From a virus, in the IMG/VR virus record IMGVR_UViG_3300012924_000001, positions 1 to 64,000 of that record: 64,000 nt of DNA. The stretch is one strand, 5' to 3'. Position 1 is the first letter of the stretch, and every line of letters begins with the position of its first letter. A program made the translations under genes and the position numbers. Of this stretch, positions 4,253 to 36,300 are shown piece by piece. Below the pieces are notes generated by a model. The model made no database searches. It was given only the letters and a program-made list of their open reading frames with translations, and had not been told where the DNA came from.

Positions 4253-4285
4253 ATTTATATTGCAAATTTTACAGGAATATAATGG

Positions 4286-5273: not shown

Positions 5274-5705
5274 ATGAAACAAAATATTGAAGATTACTTT
5301 AAGGTAGATCCTGCTACAAGGAGACAAATGCATATAGATAAGCTTAGGGAATCAGGGTGGTTACAAGGAGCTGAAAAAATATTTAATTCATCTACTATGG
5401 AGGAAAATAACTTTAAAGCACAACAAATGAATAAGATCCAGCCGGAAACAATTATTGCCCTGGTAAAAAACGTTGGTAGAGACATTTCCACCGAAGAGGC
5501 CATTCGCCTACTGGAAGCCATGGAGACAATGGTGGAGATAGCAGGAACCGCCCCTGTGATCACAAAACAGGTATTAGATCCCGTAGACAATGAGCGCGTG
5601 ATGAATGCCCGGAGAAATGAGACAGATGATACCCTTCTCCGTATGCAGCTTCTCCAGCTACATTACGTTGTGCAGGACTTAATTGCAGGATGGATAGTAA
5701 GCTAG
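5274..5705 (+). CDS. hypothetical protein
   Basis: ORF track; followed by hairpin at ~5745-5775. Confidence 0.7.
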   Translation: MKQNIEDYFKVDPATRRQMHIDKLRESGWLQGAEKIFNSSTMEENNFKAQQMNKIQPETIIALVKNVGRDISTEEAIRLLEAMETMVEIAGTAPVITKQVLDPVDNERVMNARRNETDDTLLRMQLLQLHYVVQDLIAGWIVS

Positions 5706-5808
5706 GAATCGGTATAATTTAATTTTACGTATAATTGTCATGATAACCCCGTGGCTAATCCTGGCCCTGGGTTTTATATAATGATCATTGTCTTTTAATA
5801 TAAATAAA

Positions 5809-6228: not shown

Positions 6229-6261
6229 TTTGAATGAGTATAATTTACTTATCTTGCGACT

Positions 6262-6326
6262 ATGTTTTTTTTTATTTAGAAAAATGAGAGATGGCACCCC
6301 CTGGCTATTTTTAGCTGGGGGTTTTT
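6262..6326 (+). ncRNA. candidate sRNA A
   Basis: TTTG(6229)-N17-TATCTTGC(6250); terminator 6296-6326. Confidence 0.6.
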
Positions 6327-6392
6327 GTCTCTGTGGTCCAGTATTAACTATCTGATTTGGATAGTATGGGTAGAGTAAGTATATTTGGAAAG

Positions 6393-6450
6393 TTATTTAA
6401 TTTATTTTATTATGTTTATGTGAAACATCCTACTTTTCCAAGTGGGGGGT
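6393..6450 (+). ncRNA. candidate sRNA B
   Basis: TTTG(6356)-N20-TATATTTG(6380); hairpin 6429-6446, weak U tract. Confidence 0.5.
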
Positions 6451-6468
6451 TGGCTTATTTTGCACTGT

Positions 6469-6525
6469 ATAGTGCAATGTTTATACACAACGAATCGCCC
6501 AGGTCAGTTTTGGTCTGGGCTTTTT
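6469..6525 (+). ncRNA. candidate sRNA C
   Basis: TATTTTGC(6456); terminator GCCCAGGTCA-gttt-TGGTCTGGGC-T5. Confidence 0.55.
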
Positions 6526-6575
6526 ATAGTTTATCCTACTTTCATTATTTTACAATAAACAATAAAGATAAATTT

Positions 6576-6836
6576 ATGGGCAATAAAGAAAGAGAATCAC
6601 GTCTAGTTTATCGTATGAATACATACTGTATTATGTATGTCGATAGCGCTACTAACGACTCAATAAAAGTATTAGAAGTGCTAACACTTCCACATTATAG
6701 GTTAGATCAAGATATAATAATTGATGGGATTATGTATAAGGTTATTGATACGGCTGATCACATTGACACCGAAGATTTTTCATACATAATATCTGTTCTG
6801 GTTGAACTTGTGGATGATTCCGAATTAGAAGATTGA
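6576..6836 (+). CDS. acidic hypothetical protein
   Basis: 3' part of ORF 6357..6836; ATG after A-rich leader; upstream part overlaps sRNA cassettes. Confidence 0.6.
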   Translation: MGNKERESRLVYRMNTYCIMYVDSATNDSIKVLEVLTLPHYRLDQDIIIDGIMYKVIDTADHIDTEDFSYIISVLVELVDDSELED

Positions 6837-8088: not shown

Positions 8089-8295
8089 ATGACAAGAACC
8101 CTTATTAAATTTCGCGTAGTGACAGATGGAATGGCTGTTCATCATGAATACTGGCACAGACTTTTTTGGTTTGTAGGCTATTGGTTGCCATATAAAAGTA
8201 CTGCGTATAACAATCGAGATCAGATAAGAGAAATAGAAAGAATAATAGCCGCGTTTGTGAAAGATCCAGATGGAAAAGACATCCCTGTTATATAA
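8089..8295 (+). CDS. hypothetical protein
   Basis: ORF track. Confidence 0.55.
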   Translation: MTRTLIKFRVVTDGMAVHHEYWHRLFWFVGYWLPYKSTAYNNRDQIREIERIIAAFVKDPDGKDIPVI

Positions 8296-8356
8296 CAAAA
8301 CACCTCCCAAGAAAAGGAGGTGCAGAAGGTATGGTGATAATTCAAAAGAAAAATTA
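8296..8356 (-). ncRNA. candidate sRNA E (minus strand)
   Basis: Minus-strand TTTG-N19-TATATTTA (8392 to 8362); hairpin CACCTCC/GGAGGTG followed by TTTT. Confidence 0.6.
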
Positions 8357-8466
8357 CGATGTAAATATAGGATATCCGGAGATATTGACAAAATAAAAAG
8401 CATCAATAAACATGACCCATTTTAAAATACAGTTTTGGTAGTTTATTAACTATTAAAACTGGCTCA

Positions 8467-8712
8467 ATGAAAAGACCTTATTATCTTAGAGATTCTGCTA
8501 AGAGGAACAGATGGGTAAAGGCTCATACTATTCGTAAATATAGGCATAGGATTAATCAGCTGGTAAGTCTGTATTGTAGAAACAAAAGGTATCTACTATT
8601 TTATCAGTCTGATCTGGAATGGGAGAACGAACCTGCTGATCCTATACATGGCTGGAATGAGTTACATCTGCCGCAATGGAAAGATATTAATGATCCCTGG
8701 TCTTGGGATTAA
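8467..8712 (+). CDS. hypothetical protein with basic N-terminus
   Basis: ORF track; terminator at ~8738-8772. Confidence 0.6.
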   Translation: MKRPYYLRDSAKRNRWVKAHTIRKYRHRINQLVSLYCRNKRYLLFYQSDLEWENEPADPIHGWNELHLPQWKDINDPWSWD

Positions 8713-8803
8713 AAACTTTATATAGTTGGATTTATGCTCTCTGGCTAATCTTGGCCGGGGGATTTTATTTTTGGAGATAAGAAAAAAGGTTATCTTTGAC
8801 ATC

Positions 8804-8862
8804 TTCGAACAAATCACTCTATAACGAATATGATAGCCCCCAATAGGTCTCTATTGGGGGGA
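8804..8862 (+). ncRNA. candidate sRNA G, or leader hairpin
   Basis: TTTG(8770)-N17-TATCTTTG(8791); 10-bp stem at 8837-8860 without U tract. Confidence 0.45.
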
Positions 8863-8871
8863 AATTAAATC

Positions 8872-9540
8872 ATGTTAGGGCCTAGTAATATGAAACATAT
8901 GAGCGTATCACCGTTGGAGTTGTTACTATTGGACAAGGTTCTATTAAATGAAGATGGTCTTCCCAAAATATTACCCGCTGCAACGTATAACAATATTCCA
9001 CATGAACTGCTCCAAGCTTGGACTAATATACGAGGTATTTATCAGGTAATTACAAAAGAACAAGTAGAGTGGACAAAAATGAAAATTGCTGATAGGTCTG
9101 CAATTGAAATATGTGCTGGATATGGCACCCTGGGACGAGCATTGCAGATTCCTTTTACAGATGTTAAATTACAAGAGGATGAATCTATCGCTTCAATATA
9201 TAGAAAGCACAAAACGTTTACTATCAACTATCCAAAAGATGTAATTAAAATGGAGGCTATTGAGGCTATAAGGCATTATAGACCACAGGTAGTAATAGGT
9301 TGTTTTGTTACTCAATGGGGGTCACATGAAATGCCCCTTGCGCCGTCATCTCCCTATGGACCAAAAGAATGGGAATTTTTTGATGAAGGGGTAGAGACTT
9401 ATATAAACTTTGGCAACAAGGCACCTCATTTTAATAAACGCCTTTATGCAATGCCGCACGAAGAACTTTGGCTTCCGTGGTTGGTAACAAGGTGTAATTA
9501 TCCAAATTTAAATCGCGTATGGATCTTTAATAAAAAATAA
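8872..9540 (+). CDS. putative class I SAM-dependent methyltransferase-like protein
   Basis: Motif-I-like AIEICAGYGTLGRAL. Confidence 0.55.
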   Translation: MLGPSNMKHMSVSPLELLLLDKVLLNEDGLPKILPAATYNNIPHELLQAWTNIRGIYQVITKEQVEWTKMKIADRSAIEICAGYGTLGRALQIPFTDVKLQEDESIASIYRKHKTFTINYPKDVIKMEAIEAIRHYRPQVVIGCFVTQWGSHEMPLAPSSPYGPKEWEFFDEGVETYINFGNKAPHFNKRLYAMPHEELWLPWLVTRCNYPNLNRVWIFNKK

Positions 9541-9582
9541 AATGTTGTTTTTTATTTATAATAAAGTATTATATTGCACGTA

Positions 9583-9647
9583 TTATTAACAACCGGGGAA
9601 TAAGCATTTAAACAGGCCTCACCTAGAAATAGGTGAGGTTTTCTTTT
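9583..9647 (+). ncRNA. candidate sRNA H
   Basis: TATATTGC(9570); terminator CCTCACCTA-gaaa-TAGGTGAGG-TTTTCTTTT. Confidence 0.6.
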
Positions 9648-9681
9648 ATAGAAGATTTTGTTATATTGCAATAAACATCTA

Positions 9682-9987
9682 ATGCGCTCACCAATACCGG
9701 GATACGAGTCTTATACTATCACAGAAGAGGGCAAAGTATATAATAAGCATGGTCGTCAAGTTCATCCTTATGTACATGAATCCGGATATCTGCGCCTCCA
9801 ATTAAGAAAAGAGCATAAGACCAAGCCACTTTTTGTCCATAAGCTCGTTGCCCTTACCTTCATACCCGATCCAGGCGATCTGCCGAATTTGAGGCCAATA
9901 GACGGCAATAAACGTAATCTGCGTTATTCGAATTGGGAGCGGTATCAAAAGAATAAAATTAGTCTCTGTAGTGATATTGCTGAATAG
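9682..9987 (+). CDS. degenerate NUMOD4/HNH endonuclease-like protein
   Basis: IPGYESYTITEEGKV..GYLRLQL..VHKLVALTFI; catalytic HxDGNKxNN reads PIDGNKRNL. Confidence 0.75.
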   Translation: MRSPIPGYESYTITEEGKVYNKHGRQVHPYVHESGYLRLQLRKEHKTKPLFVHKLVALTFIPDPGDLPNLRPIDGNKRNLRYSNWERYQKNKISLCSDIAE

Positions 9988-10032
9988 TCAATTTTATTTT
10001 TTTGTTCTCTAAATAAATTTTACTTTAGATCA

Positions 10033-10102
10033 TTGCACCTAAAGGCTGCAATAAATATTGATTACAAAGAACGGCCCCGCTAAATCTTTAGTGGGGGATT
10101 TA
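10033..10102 (+). ncRNA. candidate sRNA I
   Basis: TTTG(10001)..TACTTTAG(10021); 5' hairpin plus CCCCGCTAAA/TTTAGTGGGG stem. Confidence 0.45.
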
Positions 10103-10168
10103 AAAAATTACACCTCCCAAGAAAAGGAGGTGTTTTGTGTAACGCCGTAAGACCTCATAGAAATCTTG
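10102..10168 (-). ncRNA. candidate sRNA J (minus strand, convergent with I)
   Basis: Minus-strand TACCTTGC (10174-10181); same 23-bp hairpin as sRNA E. Confidence 0.55.
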
Positions 10169-10210
10169 CATTTGCAAGGTAATATTTTCTAACAAATAAA
10201 AACATATAAA

Positions 10211-10435
10211 ATGAGCGACAAAATAATCGGTCCATTAGAGGTGACTCCGACTCCAGATGATGCCTTTAAAAAGTTAGAACTTTTGGATCGTAGCTTTATG
10301 ATAAGCAAGATATTTCACGATTTTGTTTTAGATCACCTTTTTACTTCAGAGGATGAGGAGATTTCCACATTAGCAAATAAAATTTCTGAAGACCTGGGCG
10401 AATTATATCAGCTTATTGGCGCAAAGGCTATGTAA
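10211..10435 (+). CDS. small acidic hypothetical protein
   Basis: ORF track; A-rich start context. Confidence 0.7.
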   Translation: MSDKIIGPLEVTPTPDDAFKKLELLDRSFMISKIFHDFVLDHLFTSEDEEISTLANKISEDLGELYQLIGAKAM

Positions 10436-10478
10436 AAAAGATTTTGTGGTTATTATTATATCCCATAACTTCGCTTTG

Positions 10479-10557
10479 TTGTTCTCTACCTCCGTAGATA
10501 ATTAACGAAACTGCGAAAATATTCCTCAGTCCTTTTTAGGTACTGAGGTTTTTTTTT
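10479..10557 (+). ncRNA. candidate sRNA K
   Basis: TTTG(10443)-N19-TAACTTCG(10466); terminator 10524-10557 with T9. Confidence 0.65.
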
Positions 10558-10591
10558 GAGAAAGCGAAAGACCAACCATAAGTTGCTCATG

Positions 10592-10692
10592 TGCAGCTCT
10601 CCAGACCCCGTAAGGTTTGGACTTTTTATTTTGGCACTCTATAAATACGTGGAATTTTTATCGCCCTGGCAGATTTCTGCTAGGGTTTTTCT
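10592..10692 (+). ncRNA. candidate sRNA L
   Basis: TTTG(10555)-N20-TAAGTTGC(10579); hairpins 10600-10621 and 10664-10685, each followed by a T run. Confidence 0.6.
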
Positions 10693-10740
10693 TTTGAGAT
10701 TCTGAGAAAGGAATGGATTTTTTACTTTATCTTACAGTTC

Positions 10741-10839
10741 TTCCAATTGTGGAACTTTGGGATAGTGCTCTTTATTGTCAGAGCTTTGGTCATAGTAACA
10801 GTAACATAAGACTGCGCTTATTCTTGGGCGCAGTTTTTT
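10741..10839 (+). ncRNA. candidate sRNA M
   Basis: TATCTTAC(10728); two small hairpins and terminator 10811-10839. Confidence 0.6.
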
Positions 10840-10876
10840 ATTTGGTAGAATCAAATAATTTTTTATATTTACGCTG

Positions 10877-10958
10877 AATTGGTTTAAATCCTTTTTATAG
10901 ATAGGGACTTTTCTATTATTATAGAATTGAATAACCTGGATTTTTATCCGGGTTTTTT
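10877..10958 (+). ncRNA. candidate sRNA N
   Basis: TTTG(10841)-N19-TATATTTA(10864); terminator 10933-10958. Confidence 0.65.
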
Positions 10959-11027
10959 ACTATATAATTTGTATAATAATAGTTGGAATCTTTTCCGTAT
11001 ATTCGACCCGTTATAATAATACTCAAA

Positions 11028-11432
11028 ATGACTATCTCAACTTCGGGCCTCCTGACATCTGTATGTCTTATTATAATTCTCATCTCCGTACTTGGGTCAC
11101 ACTTCTTTTTTAAGATAAGGATATTGAGACGTCAACTGGACAAGTACAAGAAAAAGATAATATTTGCCGATGAGAAGGATCTGAATGAGTATGTTAACTC
11201 AAAAGTTATCCATATCAAAAACGCTACGTATAATTTGGCTTTTGAGCAAGCTACGGCGGCAGTAAAGAGCTATCCAGCTGTAACAGATACAAATGCTCTT
11301 GCAAAAACTATTTGTTCTTTGTTAGAAAAAAAGTCTTTTTATACTGAAGAGCAAGCTAAACAATTAGCATTAATGGCTTTTACTTGGGATCGTGATTTTG
11401 AATCTTTTTGGGAAGGCAATGAGGAGATATAG
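11028..11432 (+). CDS. membrane-anchored hypothetical protein
   Basis: N-terminal TM helix; promoter TATATTCG at 10998. Confidence 0.65.
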   Translation: MTISTSGLLTSVCLIIILISVLGSHFFFKIRILRRQLDKYKKKIIFADEKDLNEYVNSKVIHIKNATYNLAFEQATAAVKSYPAVTDTNALAKTICSLLEKKSFYTEEQAKQLALMAFTWDRDFESFWEGNEEI

Positions 11433-11790
11433 TACAGCATTTGAGCGAGATTTTTGTTGGTACTTATCTAAGCGGCATGTCTTTACATTTGATGGCCGCT
11501 TGCCCAGGGATATACCATTTGATAGAAACGGTATGGATGGTAGGAAGGCCTTCTTTCTTTATGATAGTCATGGAAAGGTAATGCCAACCAGACATCCACT
11601 TCTTGTGGCTTCTTTAATGCGTACAAAGGGATCTGTTAATTTACACATAAAAATGTGGGCAGAAGATCGCGCTAATGGCATTTTACCAAGAGTGCTGTTT
11701 GATGATATCTGTGTACAGTTGAATCTACTTGATTGGATCATAGAGGCTGTAGAAAAACAAAAGGGAAGATATTATACAAAAGCGGATTGA
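11419..11790 (+). CDS. hypothetical protein
   Basis: ORF track 11392..11790; ATG start chosen. Confidence 0.65.
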   Translation: MRRYSTAFERDFCWYLSKRHVFTFDGRLPRDIPFDRNGMDGRKAFFLYDSHGKVMPTRHPLLVASLMRTKGSVNLHIKMWAEDRANGILPRVLFDDICVQLNLLDWIIEAVEKQKGRYYTKAD

Positions 11791-12308
11791 TGCCTATAGA
11801 ATATTATCACAAAATATCTCCTTTCCGTAAGGACGTTAATAACTATCTGGACGCGGTGCGGAAAGAAACAAAGAGGGTAGTATATTTAATGGATCGTGAT
11901 TCGCATGAATTAATTATAGAACCAGGGAGTAGTGACTTGATGAGATTGGTTCATGTAAATGGGTCCAAGTTGAGTATAAATGATAACCAGCAATACATAA
12001 AGCTCTTTACTTCCGGATTACCATTGTTAAAGGAGTTGTCTGCTCCGGGGTTAAAAGTGTTTATCTGGATACTCGCTAATCTGAAGCCCAAACAAGACCT
12101 GATAATACTTGTACCAAACAAAGTAGCCAAAGAGTTAGCGTATAAGATAACAAAGCCTATACATGATGGTGTTAAGGAGTTGATTAATCATCAAATTATT
12201 GCTCGGGCGTATACAGGAAATAGAAATAACCCAGCTTATTACATAAACCCTGCTGTGATATTTAACGGGAATAGGAGACATCTGTGGGATGATAAATATC
12301 ATAAATAG
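11790..12308 (+). CDS. RepL-like winged-helix protein
   Basis: YIKLF..LSAPGLKVF..GVKELI..IIAR..YYINPAVIFNG pattern. Confidence 0.65.
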   Translation: MPIEYYHKISPFRKDVNNYLDAVRKETKRVVYLMDRDSHELIIEPGSSDLMRLVHVNGSKLSINDNQQYIKLFTSGLPLLKELSAPGLKVFIWILANLKPKQDLIILVPNKVAKELAYKITKPIHDGVKELINHQIIARAYTGNRNNPAYYINPAVIFNGNRRHLWDDKYHK

Positions 12309-12314
12309 TTAAAC

Positions 12315-12620
12315 ATGACAAAGAGAATAGACAATTTATTGCGGGTGGTTGCTCCTGATCAACAACAAGAGATCGATGTTAAGCGGGATATTGCCAGAGC
12401 CATATGTTATGGCATGAAGGCAAAGGGTTTAACGCAGGCACAGCTGGCGGTAGCGTTAGATAAGTATGATTCAACCATATCCATTTGGCTGAGTGGAAAG
12501 CATAACTTCACTATCGAAACATTATTGGAGATAGAGAAGGCTCTTGATATAAAACTCCTTTCTTATAATGATGATCAGGATAGGCATAATTGGCTCAAGG
12601 TCGATCCGAGAGAAATATAA
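12315..12620 (+). CDS. XRE HTH protein (antitoxin-like)
   Basis: KGLTQAQLA..ISIWLSGKHNFTIETLLEIEKALD. Confidence 0.8.
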   Translation: MTKRIDNLLRVVAPDQQQEIDVKRDIARAICYGMKAKGLTQAQLAVALDKYDSTISIWLSGKHNFTIETLLEIEKALDIKLLSYNDDQDRHNWLKVDPREI

Positions 12621-12951
12621 GATCTATGCACTATTAAATAAGATCTTTAGAAGGTATCCGGATGCCGAATTAGTATCTGGAGGTGCGGAAGGGCCTGATT
12701 CCTTTGCATATGATTATTGTATCGATTATGGCCATGATATTATGGTATGTGGTGCTGGTTGGAAGGTACATGGCAAGAAGGCTGGATTCATAAGAAATAT
12801 GCGTATTGCTAAAAGAGCCGATATAATAATAGCATTTTGGGATGATACGTCCGGTGGTACCAAGCATTGTATGGATTATGCTAAAAATATGGGCAAAAAA
12901 GTATACAAGTATGATTTTAAAACTGATAAATTAATTTTATATGGAGCTTAA
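12568..12951 (+). CDS. SLOG-family protein (YspA/DUF2493-like)
   Basis: IIGSR..VSGGAEGPD..GKKAGFIRN..IAFWD..SGGT motifs. Confidence 0.8.
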   Translation: MMIRIGIIGSRSIREKYKIYALLNKIFRRYPDAELVSGGAEGPDSFAYDYCIDYGHDIMVCGAGWKVHGKKAGFIRNMRIAKRADIIIAFWDDTSGGTKHCMDYAKNMGKKVYKYDFKTDKLILYGA

Positions 12952-13249
12952 TACCGCACTTGATGTTATTAAGAAAGAGCTTTCCCAGAATCAGGCTTTC
13001 TTCACTGCTTACGAAAGTATGATATTTTACTGTGTATATCGTGAAATTAATAAGCATGGCACATATGAAGTATTTACAGCCAATGAACAAGTTTTAAAGG
13101 ACATAATTTTGGAGGGAGCGAGAAATTTTCTGAAAGAATGGGTCGGTCTGGATGAAAGACCAATGATCTCCAGCTTAGCTGCTCTCAATGAACTCAAGCA
13201 GTCCCAGGATGAACCCTTAAAAAAAGACCTAAAGAGTAAAAAGAAGTAA
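12941..13249 (+). CDS. hypothetical protein
   Basis: ORF track; overlapping packing. Confidence 0.65.
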   Translation: MELNTALDVIKKELSQNQAFFTAYESMIFYCVYREINKHGTYEVFTANEQVLKDIILEGARNFLKEWVGLDERPMISSLAALNELKQSQDEPLKKDLKSKKK

Positions 13250-14664: not shown

Positions 14665-14696
14665 GATATGGAAGCTATGTTAAAACATAGCTTATG
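14665..14696 (+). repeat. 32-bp hairpin element, copy 2, abutting TerL start
   Basis: GATATGGAAGCTATGTTAAAACATAGCTTATG. Confidence 0.85.
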
Positions 14697-16733
14697 CAAA
14701 CAGTGCATGTATATGGAGTAGATTACAATACTCCCGCCTATCCTAAAAGAGAAACTGTCTCTAATTGTAGAGAGGTTTTGGGAGACCAAAAATGGATACG
14801 TGCTCCTATTCCCGAATCATTTGATGAAATAGAATTTGATGAGGAAGGGAATGCTATTCTTTCTCTTGAGCAGGAAGATTTTGTTGTCTCAGAACTTGAA
14901 CGAATAAATCACGGATTTTTCTTCTTTAACCGTGGAGAGTTAACCTATATTACAGGCGTTCATTATTTTTACTTACAGTACTATACTCTTGAGGACGGTA
15001 ATGCCCCTGATTACCGCGATGCAGACCGCAAATGGTTTTACTTTCTCGAACATTGTTACAGTAAGCCTTATATAAAAGGGATCATCCGCATTAAGAAGCG
15101 TAGGGAAGGTGCCAGCTCTCAAGCTGCATGTTTTCTACTATGGATGGCGCTCACTAATCCACAAAGCAACTGTGGTATTATTTCTAAGACAAGAGATGAT
15201 GCCAAGGCTGTTTTCTCAGATATGGTGGTCCGTGCCTTTAATTCGCTCCCTGCTTTCCTGCAACCCCGCGTAGAAGACTCAGAAAGTAAAAGCCAGCTTG
15301 TATTTGCAAAGCCCAAAAATAAAAAGAGAAATGTAATAAAAACTAAAGGGCAGCTGTATAATAAAGATCGTGGTTTGCAATCCAGGATCGATTATAAAGC
15401 TACGGCGCTTAATAGTTATGACTCTGGCCGTGTAACGCTGCTCATGTGTGATGAGTCTGGCAAATGGGGTGTAGAGGTGCCTATTAATCAGTATTGGCCC
15501 ATTGTGCGTAAGTGTCTTACCCAAGGTGCAAAGCGTGTAGGCTTTGCACTATTGATATCAACAGTGAATGATGCGGAGAACGGAGGTAGTGCTTACAAAG
15601 AAATATGGGATGAGTCTAACCATTTTGAAAATAAGATAACAGCTACAGGGTTATATAGATATTTTACTCCGGCTTACGAAGGCTTTGCAGGCTTTATTGA
15701 TCCTTATGGTTTTTCTATTATAGATAAAGCCACCCCATCAATGCGCAATATGTTTTCTGAGCAGTATGGTGTAGAGTATGATGGGGCTGTAGACTATTTG
15801 ATGAAGGAGCGTAAAGCGATCAAAGATCCTGTAGCGCTTTCTGAGTTGGTGCGTATGATGCCGTTCAATGAGAGAGAGGCATTTATGATCAGTCAAACAA
15901 AGTGCCACTTTTCAGTAAACAAACTTAACGAACAGATTGAGTATTTAATAGAAAATCCTCCCTACCTACGGAGAGGAAAGTTTTATCAAAAGGAAGATGG
16001 AACTGTTGATTTCCTTGATATGGAGGATGGGCCGTGGCATGTTTATAAATTTCCTACTAATGAAGAGCGCAATAGGCGCTTTATGACGGACAAGGGATGG
16101 AGTCCCGCAAATACAGCAAAGTATTGCAATGGCATTGACCCCCATCGGCATAATTTTACAAAAACTCAAAGGAGCCTTTCAAAAACTTCCGCCTGGATAG
16201 GAGAGCGCTTTGATTCTAATGATCCGGAAAATACTGGTATGCCTGTAGCATGGTACTATGACCGTCCTGCATTAAAGGCACAAATGTATGATCAAATGCT
16301 GTTTGCTGGTATTTTTTGGGGGACGCGAATGCATTTTGAAACAGATGCTGGAGATGACTACTATACTTATATCAAAAGTAAAGGGCATCTTAATTATATT
16401 CGCTGGACGCCTACTTGCGCTATTGATCCTTTAAAACCAGGACGGCGTGTTCCTGGGACCAGCTCAAGAGATCCATTTGCACTTTCTAAGCAGCTGGAGC
16501 TAGGGATTGCCTTTATTGAACATCATTGTCATAAAGTATTCTTTATTGCCTTTTTGAGGGAAGCGCTCCTTTATGAGCACGATGACAGGCAGATATATGA
16601 TACCGTTGTATCCTTTCTTATTATGCTTATTGATATGATGGGGGATACCAAGGCCAAAGTGGCAGATGAAAAGAGGGAAGTCCCAATCATAAATATATAT
16701 AATTTATTGAATGCGAACCCTCGCACTAATTAA
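14694..16733 (+). CDS. terL: terminase large subunit
   Basis: KKRREGAS Walker-A variant, LLMCDESGKW Walker B, GIDP and YDTVVS nuclease motifs; upstream of portal. Confidence 0.9.
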   Translation: MQTVHVYGVDYNTPAYPKRETVSNCREVLGDQKWIRAPIPESFDEIEFDEEGNAILSLEQEDFVVSELERINHGFFFFNRGELTYITGVHYFYLQYYTLEDGNAPDYRDADRKWFYFLEHCYSKPYIKGIIRIKKRREGASSQAACFLLWMALTNPQSNCGIISKTRDDAKAVFSDMVVRAFNSLPAFLQPRVEDSESKSQLVFAKPKNKKRNVIKTKGQLYNKDRGLQSRIDYKATALNSYDSGRVTLLMCDESGKWGVEVPINQYWPIVRKCLTQGAKRVGFALLISTVNDAENGGSAYKEIWDESNHFENKITATGLYRYFTPAYEGFAGFIDPYGFSIIDKATPSMRNMFSEQYGVEYDGAVDYLMKERKAIKDPVALSELVRMMPFNEREAFMISQTKCHFSVNKLNEQIEYLIENPPYLRRGKFYQKEDGTVDFLDMEDGPWHVYKFPTNEERNRRFMTDKGWSPANTAKYCNGIDPHRHNFTKTQRSLSKTSAWIGERFDSNDPENTGMPVAWYYDRPALKAQMYDQMLFAGIFWGTRMHFETDAGDDYYTYIKSKGHLNYIRWTPTCAIDPLKPGRRVPGTSSRDPFALSKQLELGIAFIEHHCHKVFFIAFLREALLYEHDDRQIYDTVVSFLIMLIDMMGDTKAKVADEKREVPIINIYNLLNANPRTN

Positions 16734-16788: not shown

Positions 16789-19152
16789 ATGATTGATAAC
16801 AGGCTTATTGAGTTCCATAAAGGTACGAACAGGGACAAGGAAGACCCCCGTTTTGGGATTAAGCTGGCCCAGGCGATCAGTTCTACAGTTGATAGGGGAT
16901 ATAACGGGTATTATACGCGCCGCAATGGTAAGATCAAGATTAGCCGTGATATCGCAGCGGGGCATCAAAGCATGACCCAGTTTCTTGACTTAATGAACAT
17001 CGATGGAAAAAAAGCCTTTGTTAACCTGGACCTTAGTCCTCCCTGTATAGCCCCCAAATTTATGGATATCATGACGCAGCGTTTTATGGAGCGCAGCGAA
17101 GAGGTCAAAGTATCTGCAATTGATCCGCTATCCATGCGCAAACAGGCGCGTGAAAAAGAGGAAGCTGAATTCAGGATGGGGAACAAGGATCTAATTAATG
17201 CTATCCAGCAGGAAGCGGGTGTTCCTGTAGAAGATCCTACCGCGTATACTCCAGAAGATAAGGACGACCTTGAATTTTACTTTGGATATGAATATCAGCT
17301 TCCAGAGGAAATAAAGTTTGAGAAGGCAGTGTCGTATGTTTTAATTGATAATGATTGGTTACCCGTTTGTAAACGTAAGATCATCGAAGATATGGAGGAA
17401 ACTCCCTTCGCGGCCACACGTACCTATGTTGATGTTAATGGTAAAATAAAGATAAGAGTCTGTGAACCAGAAAATACTTTTTACTCTTGGAGTAAATTTA
17501 ATGATCTCAGGGATATAGCATGGTGTGGAGAGTTGTATAAAATGAAGGTCACAGAATACCGTGCTAGATTTGCAGAGGACTATATAAGGAAATATGGACC
17601 TGAAGAAGCTGAGAAAAAATTGTTTGAAGATGTAATGACAGCCGCGAGTCAGTTCCCTGACTATACCGCTCTTAGTTGGAACTATGATTGGTCCTTTTCT
17701 TATTACCGGCCTTATGATGATTGGGAAATTGAGGTAATGGATTTTGAGTTTAAGACCGTGGATAATGATATTTATACTACAAAAACTAATAAATACGGTA
17801 ACCTTATTGCCGTTGATAAAAGGAATAAAATTCCACAAAATTTAGGCGAAAGTAAAGAAATAGTCTCCAAGCAGGTATATAATGTATACAGGGGATATTA
17901 TGTGCGCAAACTGGATAAACTTTTTTGCTGGGGGCTGGCCAAGAACATGATCCGTCCTCAGAGCAACCTGAGTGATGTCTATTTCTCCTACAGCTTCTAT
18001 ATGCCTAAAAACCGGAACATGGATAATGTCACGCTTCCGGAAAGAATGAAGTCCTCTATAAACCAAATGACGCTCTCCCACTTGAAGATTCAGCAGCTCA
18101 TCGCCAAAATGCGTCCCGCTGGTATCCTGGTGGATATAAATGGACTACAGGATATAGACCTTGGCTTAGGCCATACCGTAACTCCCCTGGAGATGCAGGC
18201 TGTTTATGATCAAACAGGTAATGTTTACTATAGAAGTATAAAAGAGGACGGAGAGACCCGTCAAATAGTCCCTATCCAGGAACTGCCGAATGCTGGCTCA
18301 GTTGCCCAAATCCAGAACTGTATTAATATATACAACTTCTACCTGGAACGTTTGCGTCAAGACCTTGGCACTAACGAATATGTGGAGGGGCAGTCTGTCA
18401 ATCCAAAGCTCGGACTTGGTGTAATGGAAAATCAAATGGCCTCTTCTAACCGGGCAACAGCATATATATATGAAGGTTATCTTTCTCTTATGCAGAACAC
18501 CTGTAGAAAGGTGGCCATGTTGCTCTGGGACAATGTTATGTTCGGCGGTAAGGAATACAGGCATTTTATCGGTGATGAAGAGCTAGAGGATAAATATTTT
18601 GATGTAAACATTGAAATGTTGCCTGATGAGATGGAACGTGCTAAGATCGATCAGAAGGTAGAAACGGCACTTTCTGCTGGGATCATTGAGTTCCAGGATG
18701 CCTTCAAGATCAATAACATCAAGAACGTTAAACTGAAGGAGCTTTATTTGTCTCGTGCTCAGAAGCGTAACCAGCAAATGAAGATTCAGGAGAATCAGGC
18801 CAACATCAAAGCGACCTCAGACGCTCAAATTGCTTCAGCCCAGGCAACTACCCAGGGTAAACAGCAGGAGCTTCAAACTGACTATAGGGGTAAGGCTGTT
18901 ATTGCTCAGATGAATGCGGATGCTAGTTCAAAATTGGAACTACAAAAGTTCGTTCAGCAGTTACAGTTAGTATCTTTTGAAACAGGGACGCCGATCCCTG
19001 CGGACATGCAAGCTATTGTTGATGGTTTCTATGATTCAATGGCTGAACAGGAAACGCAGCAACAGGAAATGGCTGATTCTGTGATGGAAGCGGATGAACA
19101 GCAGCAGCAGCAGCAACAAATGCAACCAGGACAAGCACCACAAATGGCATAA
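16789..19152 (+). CDS. portal protein
   Basis: 787 aa after TerL; P22-like size with Q-rich coiled-coil C-terminus. Confidence 0.85.
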   Translation: MIDNRLIEFHKGTNRDKEDPRFGIKLAQAISSTVDRGYNGYYTRRNGKIKISRDIAAGHQSMTQFLDLMNIDGKKAFVNLDLSPPCIAPKFMDIMTQRFMERSEEVKVSAIDPLSMRKQAREKEEAEFRMGNKDLINAIQQEAGVPVEDPTAYTPEDKDDLEFYFGYEYQLPEEIKFEKAVSYVLIDNDWLPVCKRKIIEDMEETPFAATRTYVDVNGKIKIRVCEPENTFYSWSKFNDLRDIAWCGELYKMKVTEYRARFAEDYIRKYGPEEAEKKLFEDVMTAASQFPDYTALSWNYDWSFSYYRPYDDWEIEVMDFEFKTVDNDIYTTKTNKYGNLIAVDKRNKIPQNLGESKEIVSKQVYNVYRGYYVRKLDKLFCWGLAKNMIRPQSNLSDVYFSYSFYMPKNRNMDNVTLPERMKSSINQMTLSHLKIQQLIAKMRPAGILVDINGLQDIDLGLGHTVTPLEMQAVYDQTGNVYYRSIKEDGETRQIVPIQELPNAGSVAQIQNCINIYNFYLERLRQDLGTNEYVEGQSVNPKLGLGVMENQMASSNRATAYIYEGYLSLMQNTCRKVAMLLWDNVMFGGKEYRHFIGDEELEDKYFDVNIEMLPDEMERAKIDQKVETALSAGIIEFQDAFKINNIKNVKLKELYLSRAQKRNQQMKIQENQANIKATSDAQIASAQATTQGKQQELQTDYRGKAVIAQMNADASSKLELQKFVQQLQLVSFETGTPIPADMQAIVDGFYDSMAEQETQQQEMADSVMEADEQQQQQQQMQPGQAPQMA

Positions 19153-23931: not shown

Positions 23932-23958
23932 ACCCCGGATTTTTATCCGGGGTTTTTA
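23932..23958 (+). terminator. intrinsic terminator
   Basis: ACCCCGGAT-tttt-ATCCGGGGT plus T run. Confidence 0.8.
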
Positions 23959-31902: not shown

Positions 31903-33342
31903 ATGGCGAAGGGGAATTACGGTAATCCGGAAGCAGTTGTTTTAAATCCGCAGGCATACACTAACTTTTTCTTGAAGCAACAGCAACAGAAAAAGTTAGA
32001 GAGGCAGGCATTGGACAAACAAGTCAGCGATGATATAGCAAAGTTATCTCCGGACGGTATCCGTCAACCGGACGTAGAACCTTTTTTAAAACAATACCAA
32101 TACTTAAAGAATTTATCTATACAATACAAGGATGCCATCCGCAATCCTAATAAGAATCCACAAGTATGGCAAGAGTACCAGAATTCTAAGGCAAAGCTAA
32201 TGGGTCTCATTGCCGAGTCAAAAGCTGCCAAGGAGAATAAGAAAGCTCTTATTGACTTCTATGGCAAGAATGTAGATAGGGTTGACACTGATAAGTTTAG
32301 GCAATCATTAGCGGATTACGATGCTCCAATTGGTTCACCTGAATATGAAAAGATGAAAAGCTTTGATCCTACGGACGTGTTGCTCAAAGCGCCTAAGACG
32401 GATCTTAATAAGCTGTTTCAACCACTCAATCAATTAAAGCCAGAGGAGAACCAGGAGGAAATAAAGTTACCTAGTGGAGAAACAAGAAAGATAAGGACAA
32501 AGCAAGTTAATCCGGGACTTGTGGCAAATCATATGGGGCTTCTCTATGACTCTGATCAATTAAATGCTAAGAGTTTCTTCGATAATGAGTTCAACAATAC
32601 TTCTGAAGATCGTATCTCCAAACTGGAGGATTATGCGCAGAAGAATTATGATCCTGATTTTGTGATAAAGGATGCCAGGGATTTGGCCATTGCTAGTGGA
32701 TTGTATGGCCGCGTGAATAAAAATGTGATTAGTGATTTAACAGGATCTGATATAAGCCGAAGGGAAGCATTCCAGCAGCGTATGCAGAACCAGCGCCTTG
32801 ATCGTGCTGATCTTCGAGCAGAACGTACTGCTGCCCGTAAGGATGCTAAGGATAGTTATATCTGGGAGAATGATATAGCCAATGCTATGCAGAACGGTGA
32901 TACTGAAAACGTAAGAAGATTGGCTTCCAGATTAGATACTTCTACCCCAGGCGTGGAAAAGGTTTTTCTGAAAGAAGGACAAACCACCCAAGGTGCCATG
33001 AAAACATTTATGCGTGAGCTTAGGGAACGGGGATTAGATGGTAAAACTAAAAACTTGAAGCCAGCAGATTTTAAGGCGGGTGTGTTAGTCGTTGCTGTAC
33101 CCAAAACGGATAAAGAGGGGAAAAGAATAAAGAATAAAAATGGATTGGACGAATTTGAGTACTTAGCAGTTTCGTCACGAGATCAATATATACAAAGCAG
33201 GTTGAATAAGTTAAAATCTTATGCAGCTGGGACATCCCTTAAAGGACTTCCAGATAAAGCCTTCAAACAGCAGGAAGCTGTTGTCCCAACCTTTGAAGAG
33301 GATGGTTATGAGCTTGATCCAACAAATGAAGAAGAACAATAA
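31903..33342 (+). CDS. putative internal virion protein
   Basis: Helical, Q/K-rich; position. Confidence 0.65.
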   Translation: MAKGNYGNPEAVVLNPQAYTNFFLKQQQQKKLERQALDKQVSDDIAKLSPDGIRQPDVEPFLKQYQYLKNLSIQYKDAIRNPNKNPQVWQEYQNSKAKLMGLIAESKAAKENKKALIDFYGKNVDRVDTDKFRQSLADYDAPIGSPEYEKMKSFDPTDVLLKAPKTDLNKLFQPLNQLKPEENQEEIKLPSGETRKIRTKQVNPGLVANHMGLLYDSDQLNAKSFFDNEFNNTSEDRISKLEDYAQKNYDPDFVIKDARDLAIASGLYGRVNKNVISDLTGSDISRREAFQQRMQNQRLDRADLRAERTAARKDAKDSYIWENDIANAMQNGDTENVRRLASRLDTSTPGVEKVFLKEGQTTQGAMKTFMRELRERGLDGKTKNLKPADFKAGVLVVAVPKTDKEGKRIKNKNGLDEFEYLAVSSRDQYIQSRLNKLKSYAAGTSLKGLPDKAFKQQEAVVPTFEEDGYELDPTNEEEQ

Positions 33343-36300
33343 TGCCCGATAAAAAATACATACAGAAGGTTTATGATTTTATGAATACTGCCTATGGTGA
33401 AAAGGGGGCAGTAACAAAAGGTGTTTTCCGGGGATCTTTTAATGATTTCTATGACAGAATAAATACTGATTCCAAGTACGCCGATAAAATATACGGTGCG
33501 CTTTCAAAAGCTTATGGACCAATGGGGTCTTTGAAGAGAGATGCATTCTCTTCTGATATTACAGGATTTCGAGAGAGGGTATTAGCGCCATCAGGGACAC
33601 AACCAACTACTAGGGATATTCCTACGGGTCTTCCTGAAGAAAACCCCGTACAGGCAGTTTTACAAACGGGCAAAGATCTTTCTATTCCTGAGCAACAACG
33701 TCCTGGTTACTTCCAGGATATCAAAGCTTTTGAGCCGGATATCCAAGCAACTGAACTTGTAAAACAAGCACAATCAGAGCAGGCTTCCCGGAACGCAGAA
33801 AAGTATTTATTGCAAGATCAGTCCGTTGTTCCTATAAACATGGCCGGGCAGCTGAATGGAGAGCAAACACGTACTTTAATAGATAAAAACCTGAACGATC
33901 CTAATGTTCAGTATCGCAATAATATTAAACAGGTCTTAGAAAAAGTTGATGAGGAAGATAAGAACAGACTTGCTAATCAGCAGGTAGCTGATGAGATGTA
34001 TAAAACTCCACAGGGTAAGTTCTATTATGATTTTGTTCGCCCTGTCTATAAAGAAGCGCTTAATGTAGGCAAGAATACAGCGGCCTTTGGTGCCAGGGCC
34101 GTGGGTGCTGACAAGGTAGCCGATAAGATAATCGATTATTTTGACTTCGATAGATTGGCGCGGGAAGGTAATCCCACAGCAGCCCTGAATATGGAGCCTT
34201 CTAAGCAACAGGGAAAACTAGGCATGAACAACATCCTTCCAAGAACCATGGAGGGCCTGACTAATATGGCGGCCCTTATGGGTGGTTCGTCATTATTAGG
34301 AGGGGGAAACGCTGCGCTTATGGCTACTTCCTTTGTAAGCCAGTACGAAGACTACAGAAAAACGGCGAAACAAAACGGGCTGAGTGATGCGGACGCTGAC
34401 AAGTTTGCTACAGTGAGCGCCGGTCTTAATTCAGCGCTTGAATTAGTGTCTCCTAATAAGGTCATTACAAAAGAGCTGCCGCAGGCGCTTACTAAAAAGG
34501 AGATATTCAATTACATTAAAAATGGAGCAAGTGCAAAGGATGCGATAAAAAAGTTCATTGTCCGCAGCGGAGATGAGGTATTAAAAGAGAATATGCAGGA
34601 GTTCGCTCAGAACATGGGAGACAAGACCGCGAAGTATGCTTTTGATAAGTATGTCTTAGATGATCCCCGCTTTGGCGAAGAGACAATATTGCCTTCTTTA
34701 CAGGAGTCTTTAGAAACAGCGGTTATTACTACGCTGGTTACGGGCCTTATGTCCTCTCCGCATCTGGTAGCACGCAATAAGCCTTCCAGTCTTGAACGTA
34801 GCGCCTGGGCTGCCGCAGCACAGAATCCTGGAATCATAGAAGGGGGTTTAAAGAATGCAGTGGCACAAGGGCAATTAACAGAAGCGAAGGCAGACCAGAT
34901 TAAACAGAATGTAGGGGAATACACAGAGATATATGACGCTCTTTCTGCTAAGGGATATAATCCTGAGATGGTGGAGAGAGTTGCTATGAACGCCTTTAGA
35001 GCTAAAAAACTGGATGAACATAATAAACCTTTGTCTGGAATTGAAATTCTGACGCCTATCACAGCACAGGATGATGCTACAAAGATTGATCTTGAGAAAG
35101 GAGTTTTATCCGCTATAGCTGGGGAATCAGAAACGGATTATGATACAGAACCTGAAAGTAAAAAAGTTACAGTTCAGCAGCCTGAAGAGGTATCACACCC
35201 GCAAGTTATTGCTGTTGGGCAAAAAATTACTGAACCATCTCAACCTGAACAAAATGCCATTCAAGAGCAAACAGCAAGAAAAAGCGTGCTACGCGAAGAA
35301 AGACCCGAACTGGGATTGCAAGAAGTGGGCGAAGGAAACGCCGAGTCCCAAATCCCTCCCACAGAAAGTGAAACAGAGCAGCCCAAAGTCCAAGAAGAAG
35401 TAAAAGTAAAATCAGGAACTAAGGAAAGCCGGGATCAGGCGGTTGCCAACTTAAAAAATAAGTTTGATCCTTATAAACACGTTGGTATTATAAGCGATCC
35501 TAAGCAGAACCTGAAACGAGATAAAGAATTTTATTCTGCTTTGGCAAATTACATTAAAGAAGAAATTCTGTATCGTGCAAATCAAGTGAAGGGCTTTGCC
35601 AATGAAAAGAAGGCAAAAATTAAAAGAATGATCACTTCTTCTCTTAAAGAAGAAGGAATGACCATTCAGGATCTTTCTATGCTGAATGATGCATTTGATG
35701 ATGCCTTTTCTCAGATAAAGAAAATACCTGGCGTATTACCAGAGCAGCCGAACGATAGGATTTCATTTAAGGATTATGTGCGTGATAGGATAAAGGTTAG
35801 AGAGGCAGGTTTTAAGGAAGGGAGTAAGGGGCCAACAGGACGGATAAAGGCGGTAAGGGCTGTCATTGGTGATATGTTGAAGGGGAAGCAAATTAATTTA
35901 AACATTACGCAATTACGTTCAATAACTTCTCTTTTACAAAAAGCGGTTGGCACAAAAGATAAGATTGAGAATACTGAGCGTACTGTAAAGACAATAACCA
36001 ATATTCTTTGGCAGGCACGTAATAAGCAAAAGATATCAAGAACAAAGGGACTCATGAGGTCTCTGGGAAAGCTGAAACGGTCTAAGTCAATGGTCGCTCA
36101 GGATATAGATTGGATCAAAGGCCTGCAACTTCCTTCCCCTTCAAAGGTGGACGACCTGGATTCCTATATGGATATGCTGAAGGATTTTATTGACTCCAGA
36201 AAAGGGAACGAGCTAAATCAAAAATATACTAAAGAAGAAATCTCTGAGTTTGTAGATCAGGAAAATGACCGGATATATACAGAGCGTAAAGAGTCAATGC

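Follow-up and report, generated by a model that had tools for sequence, protein, structure and literature searches.

Tandem arrays of small RNA (sRNA) genes, such as NsiR1 of Anabaena and LhrC1-4 of Listeria, are made up of copies of one sRNA. In phages, compact combinations of promoter and terminator have been described between genes. The T4-type phages RB49 and phi1 possess promoter-early stem-loops (PeSLs), composite intergenic elements that couple a host-type early promoter to a terminating stem-loop (Arbiol et al. 2010, PMC2839356). PeSLs flank orphan genes and mark insertions and deletions between near-identical phages, and their proposed role is to keep early transcription out of downstream modules (PMC2839356). 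Phage morons, as Juhala et al. (2000) are cited in PMC10914365 and PMC2839356, are autonomous promoter-terminator units positioned between phage genes. More recently, ONT-cappable-seq of Pseudomonas phages revealed promoter-then-terminator units together with 5'UTR-derived non-coding RNA candidates (Putzeys et al. 2024, PMC10914365). Across mapped phage transcriptomes, approximately a quarter of transcription units contain no annotated feature, many of them running from a promoter to a terminator (PMC10914365).

Almost nothing is known of RNA regulators and transcription punctuation in the Bacteroidota phages of soil. Here, we describe a gene-free stretch in a phage of this type, in which five terminators are interspersed with promoter-like sites at the border of the conserved core genes.

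The array lies beside the conserved core block of a soil phage

The DNA analysed (hereafter the window) spans the first 64 kb of a virus record of 78,334 bp that ends in direct terminal repeats and derives from an uncultivated phage in a soil metagenome assembly. A large terminase (14694-16733), a portal protein (16789-19152), virion proteins and an integrase are encoded. A Shine-Dalgarno core was found in only 2 of the 91 ORFs, the start codons being held within A-rich leaders, and canonical TTTG-N17/20-TAnnTTTG promoters are present at 6356 and 8770, the latter with a gene directly downstream. Given these three features, it is a fair assumption that the phage is of the Bacteroidota type and infects such a host. 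A TerL profile search of genome contigs for a corresponding prophage or host found nothing.

The first 11 kb of the genome are occupied by small plus-strand genes from which known families are mostly absent, while the genes from ~11.4 kb onward are common to relatives. The core block downstream of the array comprises a gene for a RepL-like protein (700 bp downstream of the array), an HTH gene and a SLOG-domain gene, followed by the terminase and portal genes. The array occupies the exact seam between the variable accessory (early) genes and the conserved core block. On its upstream side lies a 74-aa gene (10211..10435, plus strand), an accessory cassette situated between two hairpin zones, and on its downstream side a 134-aa gene. 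Neither of the two proteins had a single relative among viral contigs or within a set of 5.8 billion proteins. The neighbouring genes matched no family, and no antiterminator family was recognised among them.

Five intrinsic terminators are stacked within a gene-free stretch

The array occupies the plus-strand interval 10436..11027, bounded on one side by the stop codon of the 74-aa gene and on the other by the start codon (ATG) of the 134-aa gene. This gap is among the longest in the genome; it has a GC content of 33% and contains no ATG ORF of 60 aa or more. A sequence-only reading had divided 520 ORF-free bp of this region into four promoter-sRNA-terminator cassettes (units K, L, M and N), each with one intrinsic terminator. 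The gene-less, back-to-back anatomy is borne out by our analysis, and the terminators are real and strongly enriched. The gap, however, measures 592 nt, and as the array has five terminators rather than four, unit L must hold two of them.

The five terminators, all on the plus strand, fall within 520 nt of the array; ~0.2 would be expected in the whole gap. A scan of positions 9500-12000 returned 9 sites compared with 1.6 +/- 1.1 in shuffled sequences, and a separate scan of the whole genome (78 kb) placed 24 sites on the plus strand, of which nearly half lay within 4.2-11 kb. The stem energies range from about -10 to -17 kcal/mol. T1 (10524-10548, with a T run to 10557; -13.5 kcal/mol) consists of a one-bulge stem and nine T residues. 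T2 (10600-10621, T run to 10633) has a stem energy of -10.3 kcal/mol, and T3 (10663-10686, T run to 10696), which has no convincing promoter ahead of it, one of -17.3 kcal/mol. T4 (10809-10836, T run to 10843) was calculated at -16 to -17.6 kcal/mol and T5 (10934-10953, T run to 10959) at -10.6 kcal/mol. A near copy of T5 is located at 23932-23953, and small dispersed hairpin families are found at 5752/6302/8742, 8300/10110 and 10934/23932. The hairpin-rich stretch also reaches further upstream than previously noted: a plus-strand zone at 10075..10180 contains three more hairpins at 10075-10096, 10110-10133 (two-way) and 10163-10180.

When the stretch was folded as a whole, the plus strand reached -170 kcal/mol (z = -7.4) and the minus strand -133 kcal/mol, a difference that would be expected of G-U-tolerant RNA hairpins in the gene sense. 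Tandem repeats, iterons and a CRISPR-like or ToxI-like layout are absent from the array, and an internal repeat comparison found the units to be unlike one another, in agreement with the earlier view that the locus is neither a CRISPR array nor a tandem repeat. A type III toxin-antitoxin (ToxI-like) array was rejected on the grounds that there is no tandem repeat and that the neighbouring genes lack a family match; a CRISPR array or a solitary-repeat RNA anti-CRISPR was rejected for want of internal repeats. The same lack of repeats excludes a CRISPR-like or ToxI-like layout.

An Rfam search of the array gave no match at the gathering threshold. The best sub-threshold match scored 24 bits where 80 were needed, and such matches were all to sRNA models that bear a terminator. 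NsiR1 appears among these sub-threshold matches only.

Promoter-like sites accompany the terminators

The exact Bacteroidota -7 box, TAnnTTTG, does not occur in the array. The boxes of K, L, M and N (TAACTTCG, TAAGTTGC, TATCTTAC and TATATTTA, respectively) are for this reason classed as relaxed matches, and it is in this relaxed form that the previously proposed -7 box of each unit stands. Bipartite TTTG-N17-21-TAnnTT sites number three (K, L and N), whereas dinucleotide shuffling of the region yields 0.75 (P = 0.03). On the strength of this excess, the promoter support for the array appears real but modest.

Promoter-like site K (10443..10473, plus strand; a regular-expression match) places TTTG 19 nt ahead of its -7 box. 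It is paralogous to the TATATCCC-TTATCTT sites found directly before the genes at ~2197 and ~2479, and it also resembles a repeated promoter in the related phage L006 (unit U1, see below). At site L (10555..10586, plus strand) the spacing is 20 nt and the -7 box is of the TAnnTTGC type, as at 1828, 4256, 6250, 9570 and 9662. The TTTG of L (10555-10558) is supplied by the T run of K, i.e. that of T1, just as had been read from the sequence before. Promoter N had been placed 1 nt after the T run of M; the TTTG of site N (10841-10844; whole site 10841..10871, plus strand, 19-nt spacing) lies within that T run, i.e. that of T4. The -7-like box of M (10728..10735, plus strand) belongs to the TATCTT family, as do intergenic sites at 1828, 2179, 2458, 6250 and 8791, and possesses no good -33 element. 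The promoters of unit M and of the T3 unit are doubtful.

The intergenic boxes of the phage itself are mostly TA(T/A)(C/A)TT(T/G)(G/C) and in many cases draw on the T run of the terminator before them. Sites K, L and N and the box of M fit this family. Joints composed of a T run and a box occur at T1/L and T4/N, and also before the genes at 4256, 6549, 8791 and 9662. The TATCTT hexamer alone is not enriched (45 vs 37.5), nor is AACGA before hairpins genome-wide (60 vs 85 expected), and the phage-specific promoter words TTTTATAGAT and GTAGTACC do not recur across the genome.

Unit bodies and predicted transcripts

The body of K (10480..10523, plus strand) comprises a small 5' hairpin followed by an A-rich single strand with AACGAAA; together with T1, it folds with z = -5.1. 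The body of M (10742..10808, plus strand) combines a hairpin (10767-10785) with a single-stranded tail. A conserved word, CCTTTTTATAGATA (10890..10903, plus strand), stands in the 5' part of N. Ahead of the first downstream gene is a conserved block (10957..11005, plus strand) that includes TATATTCG at 10998-11005 and is likely to be the promoter or leader of the core block.

The predicted RNAs have lengths of ~78 nt (K), ~40 nt (L), ~100 nt (M) and ~83 nt (N), that of L increasing to ~105 nt if T2 leaks to T3. As predicted, the shorter L RNA consists of little beyond a ~40-nt terminator hairpin. A search of sequencing runs with positions 9000-13000 listed no RNA run containing this sequence. 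Duplex scores between the predicted array RNAs and the translation starts of the phage itself were no better than those of shuffles. Nothing in the analysis favours the roles that had been suggested for them, as antisense regulators of host mRNAs, sponges, or decoys for RNA-guided or RNA-antitoxin defences.

The 3' half of the array has a colinear copy in L006

The phage L006, whose TerL is 78% identical to that of the phage described here, contains an ORF-free gap of 529 nt (L006 5328-5856) directly before the orthologue of ORF 11392-11790. Within it are three clear terminators, at ~5474, ~5610 and ~5769; a further hairpin, at 5515, is weaker. T4, the N word, T5 and the leader block are present in the same order, so that this gap matches the 3' half of the array colinearly. 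T4 corresponds to L006 5474-5506 (79% identity over 33 nt), and the N word CCTTTTTATAGAT is found in the colinear place at L006 5671 (12/13 identical, 5671-5683). T5 corresponds to L006 5769-5794, where the stem letters differ but the loop is the same, and the leader block (10957-10981) to L006 5804-5828 (84% identity over 25 nt). In both phages, TATATTCGA follows the leader block at an equal spacing of 24 nt. Neither the 74-aa nor the 134-aa gene occurs in L006, and the array's non-coding 3' half is therefore older than the genes on either side.

Two further gene-less stretches are present in L006 (2293-2805 and 4498-4825). The former holds two paralogous units (U1 and U2) with the same promoter and related terminators, and the 5' hairpin of these units shows one compensatory change. 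The 3' half of the K body aligns with both U1 and U2, the stem of T1 resembles L006 2489 and 2640, and T3 is 75% like L006 2643-2674.

Relatives at 61-71% TerL identity (four whole records) yielded chance-level matches only and no counterpart of the array. A blastn search of the array against the phage collection gave no match, and blastn and nhmmer searches against ~165 loci returned only L006 fragments or self matches. A pattern search with T4 found no match, and one with the leader block found two. A leader-block pattern match in L162 was dismissed as chance, as it resides inside a minus-strand ORF.

The array is retained and K-M is little diverged in a close relative

A 57-kb contig from a different soil study (X2) is ~96% identical to the window over 10432-13000. 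X2 lacks 308 bp carrying an HNH endonuclease gene, and where the window has the 74-aa gene (10191-10431) it carries 25 unrelated bases. The interval corresponding to 8322-9548 is shorter in X2 by ~600 bp. Despite this gene turnover alongside, the whole array (10432-11027) is retained. Two deletion end-points in X2 are located outside shared or repeated modules.

Divergence was gauged against the 134-aa gene, in which 12 differences from X2 comprise 2 non-silent changes and 10 silent ones, equivalent to 10/85 silent sites (~12%). With X2 as the one comparator, and with the differences taken as being in positional order, K-M (10436-10845) carries 6 substitutions in 410 nt (1.5%) among the differences listed. 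This is ~8-fold below the silent sites (binomial P < 1e-8 at a rate of 8%). No substitution among the differences listed falls within the K body, or within M between 10702 and 10810, where ~13 would be expected at the silent-site rate; for the K and M bodies combined, the differences listed include 0 changes in ~150 nt, against an expectation of ~18. N and the leader block, on the other hand, differ at 12 of 182 nt (6.6%) and by indels, again among the differences listed, and the array is thus not uniformly constrained.

The substitutions that fall within stems all preserve pairing, among the differences listed. By the same listing, T2 and T3 are unchanged in X2 and T1 differs solely by having one T fewer. 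In T4, an A-U pair becomes G-U (10811). In T5, a G-U pair becomes G-C (10937), and the paired changes 10940 A>G and 10947 T>C convert A-U to G-C, a compensatory substitution; the loop of T5 is rebuilt, and its stem reaches -17.1 kcal/mol in X2 compared with -10.6 kcal/mol here. Pairs are likewise preserved by the changes at 10078 and 10092 in the upstream hairpin zone. The small hairpin of N is broken in X2 (10914).

Retention, low divergence and pair-preserving changes argue for function and would fit short terminated RNAs. By comparison with X2 as sole comparator, the K-M body appears to be under selection while being non-coding. The low divergence of the array could instead reflect a recent recombination tract, in keeping with phage mosaicism.

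Proposed role of the array

We propose, with a probability of about 0.5, that these stacked gene-less terminator-promoter cassettes insulate the core block and make approximately four short non-coding RNAs. Host RNA polymerase arriving from the upstream small genes would be halted by five serial intrinsic terminators, and the core block would consequently rely on its own conserved promoter or leader (10957-11005). Three or four host-type promoters between the terminators would fire into short gene-less bodies, releasing short non-coding RNAs from K, L, M and N. Because both of their bodies are nearly invariant, the K and M RNAs at least may function as sequence-dependent small regulatory RNAs. 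Promoter activity, transcript ends and RNA function are here inferred from the features of the DNA, and we consider the odds to be about even that at least two of the array RNAs are functional.

The notion of an array of separate sRNAs is accordingly retained in part. The anatomy of the units, their retention, a divergence ~8-fold below that of silent sites and the pair-preserving hairpins all agree with it, whereas the doubtful promoters of M and T3, and an L transcript that would be approximately a hairpin only, do not. The simplest role, that of a five-fold terminator barrier at a module border, had been missed in the sequence-only reading, as had the precedent of the PeSLs.

Alternative explanations

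The array might represent punctuation only, its PeSL-like joints having been left where accessory genes were excised or are yet to be inserted, so as to serve as barrier and recombination seams with the RNAs as by-products. The gene turnover at the joints would suit such an origin (X2 is without the HNH gene and has 25 nt in place of the 74-aa gene, and L006 has neither flanking gene), as would the small dispersed hairpin families, the T-run-plus-promoter joints ahead of real genes and the placement of the array exactly at the border of variable and conserved DNA. For PeSLs, moreover, promoter and terminator activity have both been documented, as has a part in the gain and loss of genes (PMC2839356). 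Spacers of this origin should nevertheless drift at about the silent rate, and the invariance of the K and M bodies among the differences listed is contrary to that expectation; in addition, the two X2 deletion end-points fall outside repeated modules. We therefore regard this explanation as rather unlikely. Far less credible is that selection acts on the DNA itself, the stretch being a replication origin for the RepL-like protein or another protein-binding region. That it is a conserved non-coding stretch of low GC content close to the RepL-like gene would be compatible with this, but it lacks iterons and tandem repeats, and T runs accompany the hairpins on the gene-sense strand only. Furthermore, it is owing to G-U pairs that the RNA of the plus strand folds so much better than that of the minus strand, and the changes in the stems retain a G-U-tolerant pairing that would go unrewarded in DNA hairpins.

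Two more specific explanations strike us as improbable. According to one, the array is a regulated leader with a single upstream promoter, whose stack of terminators is read through only when RNA polymerase is modified by a phage antitermination factor or by an RNA acting in cis, a part for which the pair of adjacent hairpins in M would be the candidate. Precedents for antitermination are provided by lambda pR'-6S-tR' with Q and by the put RNAs of HK022. In both phages the terminators do come immediately ahead of the conserved core block, and the two adjacent stem-loops of M are invariant with respect to X2 among the differences listed. Yet a conserved promoter-like block follows T5 in both phages, neither a recognised antiterminator family among the neighbouring genes nor an Rfam match was found, and five good terminators with internal promoter-like sites exceed the usual load of a leader. 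According to the other, which has a similarly small chance of being correct, unit M is a small protein gene. An ATG ORF of 54 aa (10713..10877, plus strand) reads through T4 and could specify a two-segment hydrophobic peptide, T4 then being a hairpin of the coding region. Its codon score (0.126) equals that of real small genes and exceeds the scores of 92% of spurious ORFs, the one change that it shows in X2 among the differences listed is silent, and a 56-aa ORF of L006 spans the homologous hairpin in the same frame with 16 C-terminal residues alike. Were T4 to terminate, however, the message would lose its stop codon. The protein is absent from the set of 5.8 billion proteins, even as an entry from its own contig, and an ORF of this length would be expected by chance an estimated ~0.3-0.5 times per such stretch. 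The likeness to the L006 ORF is confined to the part encoded by the hairpin, the N-terminal 30-40 residues being unalignable, whereas real orthologues between these two phages are 55-67% identical. In the shared part, third-codon positions agree in 7 of 11 cases, and the constraint there would accordingly seem to operate at the nucleotide level. Finally, the -7 box at 10728, which is of the family type, falls within the ORF and 3' of its ATG. The ORF is probably spurious.

An extension of the preferred reading, in which insulation is combined with short RNAs, can be offered tentatively. The locus may be a selection-maintained 'small-RNA island' of a Bacteroidota phage, producing four different regulatory RNAs from host promoters in early infection or lysogeny. 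It would have been built by stacking mobile terminator-promoter joints and would exemplify a general, overlooked class of phage locus, of which L006 would possess three. If its units make functional RNAs, several sRNAs would be packed into one small locus, in a phage from a phylum where sRNA biology departs from the enterobacterial models; to our knowledge, Hfq is absent from most Bacteroidota. If the array is punctuation only, the PeSL principle of insulators and gene-exchange seams would extend far beyond the T4-type phages, and terminator-promoter joints would be able to accumulate without cargo. In either case, genetic tools for Bacteroidota could draw on the five terminators and the promoter-like sites as ready candidate parts.

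Comparison with known systems

In common with NsiR1 and LhrC1-4, the array has the form of several promoter-sRNA-terminator genes arranged head to tail; the bodies of its units, in contrast to theirs, are unrelated. It also differs from the morons, since a moron carries a gene and the units of the array carry none. The units mapped in Pseudomonas phages resemble the array in being short and gene-less, in extending from a start site to a nearby terminator and in being conserved among close relatives. Those units, however, were seen as RNA and occur mostly singly in the leaders of genes, whereas the array is predicted and consists of a row of four or five.

The closest described system appears to be the PeSL of the T4-type phages, from which the array can nonetheless be distinguished. 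The phage belongs to another lineage and would employ Bacteroidota -33/-7 promoters, not sigma-70 ones. In place of one consensus of ~100 bp repeated many times, its hairpins or boxes form only small families with 2-3 similar members. The cassettes, four or five in number, are stacked without cargo, their short spacers being conserved, and the X2 deletion end-points do not lie inside repeated modules. As predicted from the sequence, the joints of the array unite a host-type promoter with a terminating stem-loop, and they are dense in a plastic region of small orphan genes. Stems composed of a G run and a C run are common in this phage too. At the PeSLs, genes are present or absent between near-identical phages; X2 is without two of the genes adjacent to the array, but with end-points outside shared repeats.

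Gene-less units and predicted terminators

From sequence comparison, the clearest small-RNA-like family observed in this group of phages is a pair of paralogous gene-less units, U1 and U2, located at positions 2391-2670 of L006 (a related phage whose TerL is 78% identical) with a spacing of 151-156 nt. A predicted promoter and a predicted CCTCRGTAG terminator are common to both units, and the 5′ hairpin, with the loop CGGAAC, differs between them by one compensatory pair change.

The window possesses a second gene-less stretch (6229-6576) containing two predicted terminators, at 6298 and 6497. Inside this stretch, at 6356, lies TTTG-N20-TATATTTG, which by sequence match is the region's best promoter of the canonical Bacteroidota type. 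An RNA of ~135 nt with its 3′ end at 6525 is predicted. Additionally, a near copy of T5, the last of the five predicted terminators of the array, was located in the virion module (ACCCCGGATTTTTATCCGGGGT, 23932-23953), 3′ of a 301-aa gene. A strong hairpin lacking a T run (CCCCCAATAGG..., 8838-8862), is positioned downstream of a canonical promoter at 8770 and 9 nt 5′ of the ATG of a 222-aa gene, for which it may be a leader structure.

Conserved and probably mobile genes, and a candidate recombination seam

In the interval separating the array from TerL, the most widely conserved gene encodes a 191-aa protein (11733-12308) with a weak RepL match (E = 1.4e-4). Dozens of relatives from soil and freshwater share it at 25-67% identity. 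For the 1949-aa protein (33342-39191), no PHROG match was found; should it prove to be a crAss- or N4-type virion RNA polymerase, it would be relevant to early promoters.

A free-standing HNH endonuclease gene (ORF 9658-9987; PHROG 959) is precisely missing from X2, a 96% identical relative from another soil study, where DNA comparison with this one relative revealed a 308-bp skip corresponding to window 9650-9957. Such a clean absence is the pattern expected of a mobile homing-endonuclease gene.

A 1.8-kb block of three genes is flanked by a 32-nt direct repeat (8291-8322 and 10101-10132; copies 88% identical), each copy enclosing an identical 23-bp two-way hairpin. Between the copies, X2 is ~600 bp shorter than the window. 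The repeat pair is a candidate recombination seam resembling PeSL, the promoter-early stem-loop cassette linked to gene gain and loss in T4-type phages.
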